Assembly: GCA_964016885.1 (NCBI GenBank)
Contig: OZ024740.1
Coordinates: 108,500,001 to 108,564,000 of the forward strand
Source of the DNA: Eledone cirrhosa
Taxonomy: Eukaryota
Direction: 5' to 3'
DNA: 64,000 nucleotides
How positions within the stretch are numbered: position 1 is the stretch's first letter; every line of letters begins with the position of its first letter. Made by a program: the position numbers and the translations under genes. Below, one piece after another: positions 2,970 through 63,883 of this stretch. A model generated the notes under the pieces. It was given only the letters and a program-made list of their open reading frames with translations, searched no databases and was not told the DNA's origin.

Positions 2970-3194
2970 CAAGTATAAGCGAAGGAAAAAAGAGTGTTCT
3001 ATGTATAAAACAGAGCTATTTAATTAGAAAGTGAACAACACAATATATAACTACTCCATTACCAAAGGTTTCAGGATCCTAGACAGTATTAACATATGTT
3101 TAGTTCCGAACTAGACGTATGTTAATACTGTCTAGGGCCCTGAAACCTTTGGTAATGGAGTAGTTATATATTGTGTTGTTCACTTTCTAATTAA
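2970..3194 (-). mobile_element. PLE-derived fold-back unit in (TA)n with 3' half of a hammerhead
   Basis: 87-bp arms 3020-3194 centred on 3107 (4 transitions between arms); GAAA-CC-TTT-GG-TA hammerhead helix III in each arm; bulged tail hairpin at 2996-3016 on minus. Confidence 0.7.
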
Positions 3195-3205
3195 TATATA
3201 TATAT

Positions 3206-3310
3206 AGGAAAAAGTAAAACTTTTTCCTATTACCCACTCTACTACCCTAAGTATTGAGTACTCTGGTGCGTTATGGTCCATCTGGTTCCTTACCACACTT
3301 CCTTCGTTAT
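3206..3310 (+). mobile_element. short PLE 3'-tail fragment between (TA)n tracts
   Basis: Near-identical to 37300-37385; carries ACTC-TAC-loop-GTA-TT-GAGT bulged hairpin. Confidence 0.6.
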
Positions 3311-3547
3311 ATACATATATATATGATATTGGGTATAAATTGAAGTTGTAGCTGCCATATACAGATACTATTCAAGTTGAGGCAATTACAAAGCACTCAA
3401 TGGAGTTAAATTCTTAATGGATCAAGAAGTTAGTACATTATCATCCAGAACAAAAACACAAAAGTTAAAAAGTGTGACACCAAGAAAAACGACTGAAAGC
3501 AGTGCCATACATATACCACAACAATGATAGCTATATAATAGAAAGGT

Positions 3548-3780
3548 TATCATCATCATCATCATTTCATTTTACGTCCGCTTTTTCCCTGCTTGCAAGG
3601 GTGGGACGGGAACTGATTCTGGTTTTTACCGTGTTACCTACACGGCCACATTACAGCGTGGACTGTGTGTTTTTTGTCGTGACACCTACACGGACTGGAT
3701 GTTGTGGTACCAACATAACTTTACATCGAAAGGGGTGGTGTGGATGGGGTGGGGGTAGTGGGATGGGTGTTTATTATTTT
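3548..3780 (-). mobile_element. RTE LINE 3'-end fragment
   Basis: (CAT)n tail plus sequence matching the 3' UTR of the RTE at 20070-20420; similar pieces at 5315-5570, 5975-6110, 17780-18040, 36436-36535. Confidence 0.7.
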
Positions 3781-3787
3781 TTTTGTC

Positions 3788-4113
3788 TATAACAATGTGA
3801 AGTGCAAGCCATATTGGAAGAAGTGCAGTGAACCACCACAAACACCCTCCGGAGCAAGACTTCACCCAAAGAAGGTTTTGCTCTCAATTTGGTGGGATGG
3901 AGGGTGAGGGTTCTTTTATGAGCTTCTTCTCACAGGCAGGACCATCAATTTGGATGTGCACTGTGACCAGCTGGACAAATTAAATGTAGTGATCCACTAG
4001 ACGTGTCCAACACTTGCTAATCATAAGAGCATTGTCTTTCGTCACGACAATACCAGACTGCACACTTCTTTACAGATGCAGCAGAAGTTATTGCAGCTTG
4101 GCTGGGAAGTTCT
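3788..4113 (+). pseudogene. mariner transposase catalytic-domain fragment
   Basis: Translates YNNVKCKPYW..LHPKKVLLSIWWD..YELL..TIN..CDQLDKL..VFRHDNTRLHTS..KLLQLGWEVL with in-frame stops. Confidence 0.9.
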
Positions 4114-4189
4114 ATATATACAAAATACTGGCTGTTTTTCAATTGATATATCCTGTTATATATAATTTAAACGGATATCTTTATTATAT

Positions 4190-5140
4190 ACTAGCAGCAG
4201 GACCCAGCGTTGCACGGGGTAGGAAACGTGAAATAGCAACACGCATATGCAAAGATTGAGGAATGTAGCTGTGTACTTTTTGAATTCCCTTATTCTCAGG
4301 GAATGATTATTCATCTACTGGAAACGTAGAACACCAGCAGGCCGAATCCAGTAATAGCAGTGTCAGTGGGCTGATTGCAGAAATCCTGTATGAGAAAGGA
4401 GTAAGTGTTGTGGGGTGATGTATGTCGAAAGTCTGTTCAGGAATTACATTACAGATGGGGAACACACGTCAGTCTGAAGGAGCAACGTAGTCAATTGTGT
4501 GAAAACCAAGTAGGGCGGCACTGGTTACACTGCATTCACACAGCAACAAAAGAGGTCACCGTAGAATTAGCACAACCACTGTTTGGTGTACTTGTGCAGG
4601 GTATTCATACTGCGGTGTAGGTGCAACAAAAGGTGTCTTAGTAGAAGTAACACAGACGTAAGTTTTACGATGTCAATAACACGACAACGTACACGGATTT
4701 GCGCGTGATGAAAGCACGAAGCGTCAACAGGGCGCTGACAAAAATTTTAAGGTCCTCATCATTTCTTCAATCCCCCGAAAATGATCCTGCTTAAAAGTAA
4801 GTGTTGTGTCCTCTGTTAAATAAACCAAATTTTTAACGAAATATTGTATGCTACTTATGATGGTTAAGTAATATTTATATTGAAAATGAAAATGGCATGT
4901 AATGCCCAATGCTAATTCGTAAATTTCCTAGAAACCATTAATGGAATCGGAAATTTCGAGGAAATCGGCCTCAAAAGAGCCTAAAAATGCTTTAAAAATG
5001 CGGTTTTTCGCCTAATGCAGAAAAAGTTAAATTTTTTTTAGCCCATTGCACTTCAAGAAGTATAAGTAACACATGTGTAAAATCGAGTTTAAGGGATTTA
5101 CACAGACAGACAGGCATCCTCTATTTTATATATATATATA
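4190..5140 (-). mobile_element. non-autonomous Helitron-like element
   Basis: Minus strand ends ...CCCGTGCAACGCTGGG..CTGCTAGT (GC-rich hairpin plus CTAG); 5' end in (TA)n followed by TCTG microsatellite. Confidence 0.55.
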
Positions 5141-5147
5141 TAGAGAG

Positions 5148-60720: not shown

Positions 60721-61578
60721 ATATATATATATATATATATATATATATATATATATATATATATATATATATATATATGTGTGTGTATATATATATATAT
60801 AGTGAAAAATGGAACGGGAACAAAACAGAGAGGCAGTACGAACAAAGGTTTATTAGTTTAACGCTCTTGAGAGTGTGTGTGTGTGTGGGGGGGGGGGGGG
60901 GTATACAAATATAAATTTAGCGAGAATCGCATTTCGGCGGGTAGAAATTAGCGAAACGCAACTTCCATATTGTGCAGACAAGCGCTCCATGGATATGAAG
61001 AAGATACCAGAGCTATAAACATAAGTTAAAATGGTCATACACGCTGAGACGATGGTTAAGAAGCCATTAACCACCATAGCCAAAAAAGCGAACAAGCTAA
61101 ACGGGTCAAACAAAATGAGATATGATTGAAATATTTACCCAGACCATCGAAGAAGATGGAATACTCCGAAATTGGGTTTCTGCAACACCTAAATCAATAA
61201 TTCTGTCTGCTTATAAAAAAAATAAGCTTTTGGTATAATGATCGAACAAGACATCGCTTTCTCAACGGGTTTTTGTTCTTCTTGCGCCAGAATCTCGTAG
61301 GTTATGAAAGCACATGCGAAATTCTAAGGGGAGAAAACCCCTATTTTGGCCAGTGAATTCAGCATGTGTAGTTATTGCAAACATTTGCAAAAACCGCACA
61401 AAACAAATTAAGCTCTCTACCGAGTTGTTTTTAAAATAAACTTAAGCGATTAATCAGTCAATCTCTCTCTCTCTCTCTCTCTCTCTCTCTCTCTCTCTAT
61501 ATATATATATATATATATATATATATATATATATATATATATATTAACAAATGGAAACTATATTTATAAAACCATATT

Positions 61579-61643
61579 TATTTCATTATACATATTTCAA
61601 GGACAGCAAAGCAAATTATGGTGCGCTTTCATCAGATAAAATA
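61579..61643 (-). ncRNA. type I hammerhead (47490 family)
   Basis: TATTTTAT-CTGATGA..GAAA-TATGTA-TA-ATGAAATA. Confidence 0.8.
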
Positions 61644-62359
61644 TAATATAGATCAGTTTTATAAACAAATATTGACATACCCTTAAAGAATGCGACCATG
61701 TCGGTTGGAAGCTCCCGTGAGCGTCCAACCGACATGGTCGCCAACAGTAATTCAGACATATAAGTGACTATTACGTCAAGATGAAAGATATTTAACGTAA
61801 GAAATGAGAAAATAATTTAATCCCAATTCAAAACAAGTCAAGACCAGAAATTTTATCCACAGATTTTGTGTAATCCCGGAAAAAAACCCAATAGAATCTT
61901 AACTCAAAATAAAATTAAGAGTAAAATCCGTCAATTTGGAAAAATCTACAAATATATATATATATATATACACACATCCTTCTGTTGCTTTATGTGTTTG
62001 AGTGTGTATATGTGTGATTGTGTGTCAGTCTGGTTTGTTTTGTGATTATGACTTACGGATTTTCCATAAATGAATTGTTGCCTGTGATGTTGGCAACTAG
62101 AAATATGAGTTGACAGGGAAACATGGCTGAGACTGATTATTATAATTGTCGTTACTAACACAAGTACAGATACATTATTAGTTTCTATATCACTGTAGCA
62201 ATGACCGTGACCCTAGCAAACAACTGAAAAGGGAATACACTTCCCACTCATCACACACACATACTATATGCATATATACAATGTTTTAATAGTAATCATT
62301 GCCTAAACCTTCGTTTCACACACACGTACACTATATATATATACATATATACATATATG

Positions 62360-62648
62360 CAGAAGTTATATTTAATTTGTTGGGATTCAACAAGCTTAAA
62401 CATTTTTATAGCTGATATAAAGCACTCAGCAATTAGTGGAGTAAATACACAATATATTAATAAATGGAAACTATATTTATAAAACCATATTTATTTTATT
62501 ATACATATTTCAAGGGCAACCAAGGCAAATTATGGTGCACTTTCATATCTGATGAAAACGCACCATAATTTGCCTTGGTTGCCCTTGAAATATGTATAAT
62601 AAAATAAATATGGTTTTATAAATATAGTTTCCATTTATTAATATATTA
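62360..62648. mobile_element. fold-back unit (47490 family) turning inside the hammerhead core
   Basis: Plus-strand CTGATGA at 62549 and GAAA at 62587; arms meet at TTTCAT-ATCTG-ATGAAA. Confidence 0.85.
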
Positions 62649-62809
62649 GAAACAATTAATATATTATATATATATATAAGTATGTATACGTACATACATA
62701 CATGTATACAGACGTACAGTAGTATGTATATATACATACATGCACACATATATATATGTACGTATGGATTTACCGAACATTTATTATAATGCTCGGTGTG
62801 TTTGTAAAC

Positions 62810-62897
62810 AAACATCCCGAATTAAGCCGTACAGTGTATAGCAACCATCGTTGCAACGATGGTTGCTATACACTGTACGGCTTAATTCGGGATGTTT
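62810..62897. repeat. perfect 88-bp palindrome with no spacer
   Basis: Centre ATCGTTG|CAACGAT between 62853 and 62854. Confidence 0.9.
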
Positions 62898-63246
62898 ATA
62901 TATATATAATTCGGGATGTTTATATATATATAATCGTTTTTATCATTTATTTTGTTTGACCTGTTTAGCTTGATTTGTTTTTTGGCTTAGGTGGTTAATG
63001 CCTTCTTGACCACTTTTTCAGTTTGTATGGCGTTTTAACATATTGTTTAGCTCTAGTTTTCTTAACTATTGGAGCGCTTGCCAGCATATCTACGATTTTG
63101 CGTTTCGTTTCGCTTTTTCTACCAGCCGAAATACGATTCTCGCTGAATTTATATATATATATATATATATATATATATATATATATATATATATATATAT
63201 ATATATATATATATATATATATAATATATATATATATGTGTGTGTG

Positions 63247-63580
63247 TGAAGTATTTCCGTAGGAAAGGTACAGGAAAAGAGAGTGCTCTATGTAGGCTAC
63301 AGAGCTTTTTAGTTATGTAATAAACAACATAAGATAATTATTTTATTTACCAGTGGTTTCTTGAAGACAGATATTTATATCTGTCTTCAGTCGTCAGAAC
63401 GAATAAATAACATGGTGTGTTTATTAAATATGGATTTGAAATATGGTTTTCAAATCCATATTTAATAAACACACCATGTTATTTATTCGTTCTGACGACT
63501 GAAGACAGATATAAATATCTGTCTTCAAGAAACCACTGGTAAATGATATAATTATCTTATGTTGCTTATTACATAACTAT
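63247..63580. ncRNA. fold-back unit with complete hammerheads on both strands (minus 63343-63402, plus 63487-63546)
   Basis: TCGTT-CTGACGA-C-TGAAGACAGATAT-AA-ATATCTGTCTTCA-A-GAAA-CCA-C-TGG-TA-AATGA. Confidence 0.9.
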
Positions 63581-63589
63581 ATATATATA

Positions 63590-63883
63590 AACAATGGGTT
63601 ATTTAATTTGTTGAATTTTCAACAAATTTAATTTATAACATATTAAAAGCACTCAACAGTCTTCTTCTGGAGTATAATATCAATAATATTAATAAATGGA
63701 AACTATCTTTATAAAAACCATATTTATTTTATTATATATATTTCAAGGGTACCAATATTTTGGTACGCGCTCATCAGATAAAATACAAAATTTGGTTTAC
63801 AGATAGTGACATATTCAGATATTGCTACCCTTGAAATATATATAATAAAATAAATATGGTTTTTATAAAGATAGTTTCCATTT
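63590..63883 (-). mobile_element. fold-back unit (47490 family) with hammerhead at 63727-63783
   Basis: TTTTAT-CTGATGA-GCGC-GTACCAA-AATA-TTGGTAC-CCTT-GAAA-TATATA-TA-ATAAAA. Confidence 0.8.

Follow-up and report, generated by a model that had tools for sequence, protein, structure and literature searches.

The 64,000-nucleotide (nt) stretch of the Eledone cirrhosa genome analysed here (contig OZ024740.1, positions 108,500,001–108,564,000; hereafter the window) carries remnants of Penelope-like elements (PLEs) of the Hydra clade. A small bulged hairpin near the ends of many copies belongs to these elements. A first-pass annotation of the window had described a single hairpin per tail, and all 10 sequences that it cited were found at the coordinates given. 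The hairpin is real, but the motif comes in pairs, of which that annotation saw half. Specifically, the leader of Hydra-clade PLEs has the order hammerhead, hairpin 1, hairpin 2 and ATG, and both hairpins share the form GCTC–inner stem–TN–GAGC–ACT. The motif is real, clade-wide, covarying and RNA-like, and it resides in a known class of elements. The features of the window are listed in Table 1.

Table 1 Hairpins, hammerhead patterns and PLE segments in the window.
Feature	Position	Strand	Remarks
Hairpin 1, degenerate (GCTC/GAAC)	2996..3016	-	Opposite arm ends ~3 nt before hairpin; inverted repeat 3020–3194
Hairpin 1, family D	3236..3259	+	Autonomous read-through copies elsewhere have hairpin 2 and ORF
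Hammerhead core upstream of hairpin 5235	5163..5185	+	Pattern only
Hairpin 1 (ACTT/GAGT), same family as 47981	5235..5254	+	
Hairpin 1 with C-UUCG-G loop	35978..35997	+	
Hairpin 1, degenerate copy of 35978 family	36316..36335	-	
Hairpin 1, family D	37311..37334	+	
Inverted 5′-truncated arm, family A insertion	40754..41495	-	Ends ~3 nt before hairpin 44092; short end of the insertion, adjoining (TA)n 40714–40757
Family A PLE ORF fragment, frameshifted	41665..42830	+	RT thumb, CxCX5C linker, GIY-YIG
Hammerhead core of family A pLTR	43990..44030	+	Pattern only
Hairpin 1, family A	44092..44111	+	At start of tail 44089–44176, then (TA)35
Hairpin 2 of family C	44648..44664	-	Other family C copies stop just before hairpin 2
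Hairpin 1 of family C, long loop	44769..44829	-	Duplicated upstream stretch 44244–44338 stops just before, at (TA)n
Family B PLE, 5′-truncated at YRDD motif	44929..47253	-	RT fragment, GIY-YIG, 3′ UTR, hammerhead 45054–45086
Inverted duplicate of hairpin 47338	47268..47293	-	
Hairpin 1	47338..47363	+	
Hammerhead core, family E	47654..47694	+	Pattern only
Hairpin 1, family E	47758..47777	+	Opposite arm ends ~47484, at hairpin foot
Hairpin 1	47981..47999	+	Inverted repeat 47857–47968; short end 12 nt before hairpin, the largest gap in the window
Hairpin 1 with 6-bp inner stem	48744..48783	-	Hammerhead core 48859–48904
Hairpin 1, family E	49190..49209	-	Inverted repeat 49213–49576; short end at (TA)n 49573
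Hairpin 1, degenerate (CT bulge)	62424..62442	-	Related to families A/E
Hairpin 1	63285..63305	-	Inverted repeat 63310–63579; short end ~4 nt before; hammerhead core 63357–63397
Hairpin 1	63651..63673	-	Hammerhead core 63741–63777
ORF, open reading frame; RT, reverse transcriptase; pLTR, pseudo-long terminal repeat; UTR, untranslated region.

The available text of PMC8557442 lists for the Hydra clade a C-terminal GIY-YIG domain, RWK or RWR, DKT, a CxCX5C linker, a hammerhead in the pLTR and (TA)n targets. The clade is further marked by the lack of an N-terminal GxKF/Y and by an endonuclease that has no CCHH but has CxxC and CxH close to its conserved E and N. Our assignment to this clade is based on these sequence motifs. 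RT and C-terminal GIY-YIG lie in one ORF in 785-codon open frames, and GIY-YIG fragments are present in the window, where the Pfam model matched two of them with E values of 4e-4 and 7e-4 (below the curated cutoff). Family B has VRWKT and families D and E have RWR, while the tested family A copy has neither. DKT rather than DKG was found in all four families with a linked ORF (A, B, D and E) and in 68 of 84 homologues; N-terminal GxKF/Y was absent from these four. The CxCX5C linker is present in families A and B, and the family D and E stretches end before its position. By eye, the endonuclease (EN) of family B lacks CCHH and has one Cys inside the GIY-YIG core, with CKLC and CRH present. Patterns of putative hammerhead cores lie in the pLTRs of families A, B and E, and an Rfam search of the window gave no hammerhead match. 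Family D appears, by eye, to have a U3-A8 core instead of C3-G8 (L280:1300–1450), a variant type described in the accessible text of PMC4209133. At both of its end sites family B is followed by (TA)n. Tandem units measure ~3.5–3.6 kb, whereas PMC8557442, in the text at hand, gives <3 kb as a tendency of the clade and not as a diagnostic.

The first-pass annotation had assigned the hairpin to unrelated families. However, families A, B, D and E form one clade and are 43–74% identical to one another in protein; window families without a linked ORF (5235/47981, 35978, 63285, 47338, 48744 and C) were assigned by the hairpin motif only. Family A (40754–44177) is a typical inverted insertion, at the centre of which sits one copy of a ~200-base-pair (bp) short interspersed element (SINE)-like repeat. 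Family B is very young: 150 scored matches are 99–100% identical, many of them in 785-codon frames, and these intact frames make it a good candidate for biochemistry. Its 3′ UTR holds a (TA/TG)n tract (window 44929–47253, minus strand; loci L031–L076 and L239–L278). The window copy of family B stops at the short end defined below and therefore contains no hairpin; it ends directly against a family C unit. Family C (44178–44929, minus strand) has a unit of ~590 nt that carries both hairpins and a terminal duplication of 95 nt. It has neither an ORF of at least 100 aa nor a hammerhead core within 200 nt upstream, and is probably non-autonomous.

A strict descriptor (RCTC, inner stem of at least 3 bp, TN bulge, GAGY), derived post hoc from the examples of the first-pass annotation, matched the window 18 times, as against 1.7 ± 1.3 (maximum 5) in 60 block dinucleotide shuffles. 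Twelve of these matches are tail-type copies and six are non-members (30776, 36078, 37568, 46213, 56135 and 60984). The matches at 60984, 58232 and 63050 were excluded as part of another repeat. Relaxed scans and a covariance model, the latter built partly from window copies, gave 18 member copies: 16 of hairpin 1, one inverted duplicate (47268) and one hairpin 2 (44648–44664). The only complete pair within the window is that of family C (44769–44829 with 44648–44664, minus strand). The inverted duplicate belongs to a perfect 126-bp palindrome (47253–47415) that has a (TA)13 centre and a hairpin in each arm. This palindrome is fused to the family B copy where the latter is truncated, at the YRDD motif. 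No Rfam family reached its gathering score in the window; 88 matches at E ≤ 1 were mostly microRNA models on microsatellites.

In the 16 member copies with a microsatellite detected by scan, the hairpin lies 26–65 nt before it, in line with the 30–70 nt before (TA)n given earlier; what the hairpin itself marks, however, is another, shorter end a few nt upstream. Where a hammerhead is present the hairpin lies downstream of it, as annotated: the core pattern begins 66–121 nt upstream in 8 of the 18 member copies. As an independent check, 60 evenly spaced 10-kb stretches of the 3.0-Gb assembly were scanned; 35 of 70 paired matches had a TA run 30–125 nt downstream, compared with 15% of random positions. 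Matches picked by sequence only were paired in 35 of 73 cases near a TA run and in 35 of 205 elsewhere. A rough extrapolation from these stretches suggests on the order of 10^5 copies in the genome.

The second hairpin was observed in read-through copies and in the leaders of other animals. The relatives comprised 46 aligned proteins and 78 metagenome plus 20 genome-contig loci, 28–49% identical and presumably host DNA. Among 46 leaders of at least 120 nt, 27 had two hairpins, 11 had one and 8 had none; the antisense strands of the same leaders gave 0, 3 and 43, respectively, and 224 of 230 ORF interiors had no hairpin. Several of the leaders with no or one hairpin are permuted contigs in which the covariance model finds the pair elsewhere. 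The spacing between hairpins is 52–83 nt in 26 foreign families (45–130 allowed) and 115 nt in family B, and hairpin 2 of the foreign families begins 34–85 nt before the ORF match. Animal-type PLE sequences also occur within contigs filed as bacterial genomes or symbionts (L219–L238), probably host contamination; viral contigs contained no relatives.

In E. cirrhosa, read-through copies of families D and E have hairpin 2 three to four nt past the tail-end overlap (8/8 and 8/8 loci inspected), in the order tail end, TAT-CTA or ATATA-TTCT, second hairpin and PLE ORF. The read-through patterns, which do not include the 3′ half of the hairpin, matched 437 (family D) and 65 (family E) times, some double-counted. 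Families B, C and two others also show hairpin 2 in read-through copies. For family A, loci L077 and L078, where it precedes the ORF, are the only places in which hairpin 2 was seen. Terminal genomic copies display only hairpin 1, as the tail stops just before hairpin 2. The end of the tail is marked not by the visible hairpin but by a second one that is uncopied in terminal insertions. The published Hydra-1_Ajap consensus opens with both hairpins before ATG and ends just before hairpin 1; Hydra-2_Amil and Hydra-2_Ajap have hairpin 1 near their 3′ ends. In the accessible supplement of PMC8557442, three GAGCACT-type words matched four times in Hydra consensi and once each in an ORF-like stretch of Naiad and the Chlamys file.

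The ends of family B were mapped in 80 evenly spaced or targeted stretches (L061–L140) plus L239–L278. Of 96 ends, 54 fall at +152–154 (short ends) and 39 at +266–270 (long ends), with three elsewhere (one at an N gap); counted from the hammerhead core, the two hairpins begin at +156 and +271. The 54 short ends lack the motif, and none of the 39 long ends carries hairpin 2. The overlap with the target (TAT or TATAT) stops 3 nt short of the hairpin at either site; at the long end, where the junction lies between ACTG and TATAT, BLAST extends through one mismatch. A stem upstream of the short end, first taken as the hairpin of family B, was ruled out since end mapping puts the true pair downstream. 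Among 52 cases in foreign leaders, 27 have their last TAT/ATA ending 3–4 nt ahead of the hairpin, and 13 have none. Internal direct copies of the pLTR in other animals end at most 4 nt from a hairpin in 11 of 14 rows (hairpin 1 in four, hairpin 2 in seven); this count omits 14 rows that run to the end of a contig and 7 that are inverted. Of the remaining three, one stops before a degenerate hairpin (by eye) and two are misfits (L213 and L221).

Head-to-head pairs of family B combine a long and a short end in 35 of 37 cases (one short+short, one unscorable), which for the 36 scorable pairs has P ~2e-10 under independence. Thus, in 35 of 37 pairs the inverted insertion has a tail at one end only. 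The same geometry is seen in the inverted repeats of the window, where the tail-less arm reaches to within a few nt of the hairpin (40754/44088, 49576/49213, 47484/47758, 63579/63310 and 3194/3020), with one exception, a 12-nt gap at 47857/47968. Clustering of all (TA)n junctions across loci was too noisy and was replaced by an in-cis, motif-blind search for inverted repeats with a one-sided extension, which detected 95 tails in 43 clusters among 121 sequences. Of these tails, 54 (16 of the 43 clusters) start with the hairpin, at offsets of −2 to +7 in the cluster examples, compared with 2/95 and 3/95 in controls; 22 of the 95 are of family B, which had been targeted. In three loci (L077, L145 and L224) a hairpin with sequence running on into the ORF has a (TA)n run immediately 5′ of it, which suggests insertion into, or repeat expansion at, the alignment site.

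The motif had been taken to extend across hammerhead families. However, an abundant hammerhead-bearing 422-bp tandem repeat, whose pattern has 9,880 exact matches genome-wide, lacks it, and the motif is therefore not general to hammerhead elements. This repeat may be mobilised by another PLE clade; its end counts were confounded by an internal microsatellite and discarded. A stub of it (retrozyme-like, with a one-sided tail) lies at 62810–62897 of the window, and the repeat also occurs at L308–L313.

Covariation was tested on hairpins chosen by sequence alone, one per class per family (26 families), with permutation within class. Inner pairs 1–4 were paired in 51/52, 38/47, 27/34 and 19/27 cases, against 43, 21, 19 and 12 expected (p ≤ 0.002), and 11 of 12 off-register control pairs failed to reach p < 0.05. 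In a 53-row alignment, which has many gaps and for which the structure was supplied by the analyst, 97.8% of cells pair and 6 of 7 pairs have double changes; none of 500 shuffles matched this, and slid controls gave 22–56%. Compensatory changes had been claimed for both stems. The inner stem does covary, but the outer stem is nearly invariant, with GCTC/GAGC in 42 of 52 and ACTC/GAGT in many families of this genome. Its double changes (TCTC/GAGA twice, GTTC/GAAC and GCAC/GTGC) were allowed only after being seen and are illustrative, and the T that opens the bulge is fixed by the search definition. ACT follows directly after the stem. The near-invariant outer stem and the trailing ACT suggest sequence-specific recognition of the stem foot.

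The first-pass annotation proposed a cis signal for binding or priming of the PLE RT. A cis signal tied to PLE copy ends is strongly supported by position and covariation. Binding, priming and stoichiometry we infer by analogy with Poseidon, a PLE that in vitro synthesises DNA on both strands of the target, with RT beginning at two internal sites that bracket the tail, according to the available text of Frangieh et al. (PMC11167929). We consider it probable that the two hairpins are RNA anchors that position the PLE protein for two priming events, each inserted end lying ~3 nt upstream of one copy. The tandem transcript would contain the two-hairpin leader, with two protein molecules, one on each hairpin, and the GIY-YIG domain would cut both strands of (TA)n. 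Each target 3′ end would pair with UAU(AU) beside a hairpin and prime complementary DNA (cDNA) synthesis away from it, so that a hairpin would not be copied by its own RT. The cDNA begun at hairpin 2 would copy hairpin 1 to form the tail, the length of which would therefore equal the hairpin spacing, and the two 5′-truncated cDNAs would be joined head to head. Such twin priming from twin anchors is a likely account of inverted insertions with a one-sided tail.

Several observations weigh against this proposal. The outer stem of family B has mismatched pairs (TCTC/GAGC and CCTC/GAGC), and many inner stems are of 1–2 bp only. Counts of G-U versus A-C, at 15 vs 10 for E. cirrhosa and 5 vs 2 for other animals, do not discriminate between the strands as the one that folds, and RNAalifold found no consensus fold on a gappy MAFFT alignment, whose short loops are misaligned. 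The short+short pair (L275) and the foreign copies L213 and L221 do not fit, and 27 of the 43 tail clusters are without the hairpin (other elements, chance pairs or boundary errors). Read-through pattern matches of family A (1) and the 47981 family (6) gave no copy with a second hairpin. Finally, the in vitro precedent, Poseidon, is from a different clade than Hydra.

The hairpin could instead act in single-stranded DNA, where GIY-YIG would recognise it in the cDNA or displaced strand, cut the neighbouring TA, resolve the intermediate and fix both ends. Craig et al. (PMC8557442), in the part available, attribute the tail to EN-mediated resolution, and the accessible text of Frangieh et al. (PMC11167929) cites a tail requirement for EN cleavage by D. 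virilis Penelope. The wobble counts do not favour RNA, and (TA)n directly 5′ of the hairpin in L077, L145 and L224 looks as if DNA had been targeted. Nevertheless, the tail ends of the Poseidon PLE coincide with in vitro RT start sites (PMC11167929, in the text at hand), and primer alignment would be expected to leave the TAT/TATAT overlap seen at each site; we regard action in DNA as unlikely.

A scheme in which hairpin 2 alone sets priming, the cDNA folds back and second-strand synthesis stops or is cut at hairpin 1 would suit the many short insertions that are near-perfect palindromes, and self-priming has been proposed for Adineta PLEs (PMC3846280, in the part available). It is quite improbable in view of the tail being carried by either arm, the full-ORF copies that often stop at the short end, and two hairpins identical in form and in 3-nt geometry. 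In particular, the tail arm (+154–270) and its opposite arm (from +315 across the ORF to +152) in locus L072 have no common sequence in the region scanned, and neither arm is therefore a fold-back copy of the other.

The position of the hairpins between hammerhead and ATG, with hairpin 2 at 34–85 nt before the ORF match, would also suit a role in translation, RNA stability or hammerhead folding, the ends falling merely at nearby UA-rich spots. We judge this very improbable, as the ends lie within a few nt of both hairpins despite many other TA spots in the AT-rich leader, and family C retains both hairpins in a unit without an ORF of at least 100 aa. A chance pattern in AT-rich repeats, or sequence inheritance without structure, would fit the post hoc descriptor and the six non-members among 18 strict matches but is contradicted out of sample by the evenly spaced stretches, the other animals and the covariation of sequence-only picks, and its likelihood is negligible.

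The twin-anchor proposal has a more speculative extension of telomerase-like logic: a stem would anchor the enzyme 3 nt from UAU(AU), and the enzyme would realign and copy this site repeatedly, with two anchors on one RNA driving programmed twin priming and the flanking (TA)n being partly made by the element. We hold this to be doubtful; if true, the element would be a genome-wide source of TA microsatellites.

Other repeats surround the PLE segments. Two non-long terminal repeat (non-LTR) RT fragments, which we take to be RTE-like, lie at 6453–7661 and 20462–22201 (minus strand); they are 76% identical and have a PHD-like finger after the RT. A GC-rich cluster at 51500–57900 contains non-LTR RT fragments and C-terminal endonuclease-like ORFs in both orientations. 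Minisatellite arrays of 61 bp and 27 bp occupy 12012–12747 and 8351–8658, respectively, and the ~200-bp dispersed SINE-like repeat occurs at 14058–14279, 32471–32698, 41511–41727, 52423–52633 and 63884–64000.

How PLEs choose the RT start, and what causes inverted insertions with a one-sided tail, is an open question, and to our knowledge only one PLE has been reconstituted in vitro. For an entire clade, the motif suggests a specific candidate answer, in which a pair of anchors would define a pair of start sites and their spacing the tail length. In the genomes of cnidarians, molluscs and echinoderms it is also a marker of element boundaries and of non-autonomous partners. Telomerase has the PLE RTs as its sister group, and the placement of a short alignment site by an RNA structure therefore bears on telomerase origins. 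If the proposal is true, programmable insertion could benefit from an anchor that can be moved to set where RT begins.

The 3′ stem-loops of long interspersed elements (LINEs) and SINEs, such as eel UnaL2, are small and bulged, are taken to recruit the element RT and are shared with non-autonomous partners. The hairpins described here are likewise bulged stem-loops shared with non-autonomous partners, but the analogy drawn in the first-pass annotation is wrong in geometry. A LINE-type stem-loop is single, near the RNA 3′ end, upstream of the start and copied; here the hairpins are paired and internal, within the 5′ leader that precedes the next ORF of the tandem. Each lies 3′ of its own start, and short ends lack them. 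In L1 twin priming both target strands prime on one RNA and an inversion results, the second priming being opportunistic, whereas both sites are fixed here and the arms overlap as inverted repeats. Telomerase RNA has a short alignment region of repeat-like sequence at a constant distance from a stem, and its boundary stem, which is 5′ of the template, brings copying to a halt; the stem here is 3′ of the start site.

Our literature search, which did not cover subscription papers or Repbase entries, gave no description of the hairpin or its duplication, and the available text of the PMC8557442 paper and supplement has no match for hairpin or stem-loop. The duplication and its one-to-one match with two insertion ends thus appear to be undescribed. 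Apart from unit length, the features given for the Hydra clade in that text (PMC8557442) are common to the elements here. With the Anolis Poseidon element PAc, as described in the accessible text of PMC11167929, they share a one-sided extension downstream of the hammerhead, two bounding sites and an AT-rich target. Canonical PAc tails are 30–40 bp, compared with ~50–160 nt here (up to 178 nt), and RT of PAc starts within one AC-rich stem-loop 111–118 nt into the ORF, while the elements described here have two repeated hairpins in the 5′ leader, one for each site.

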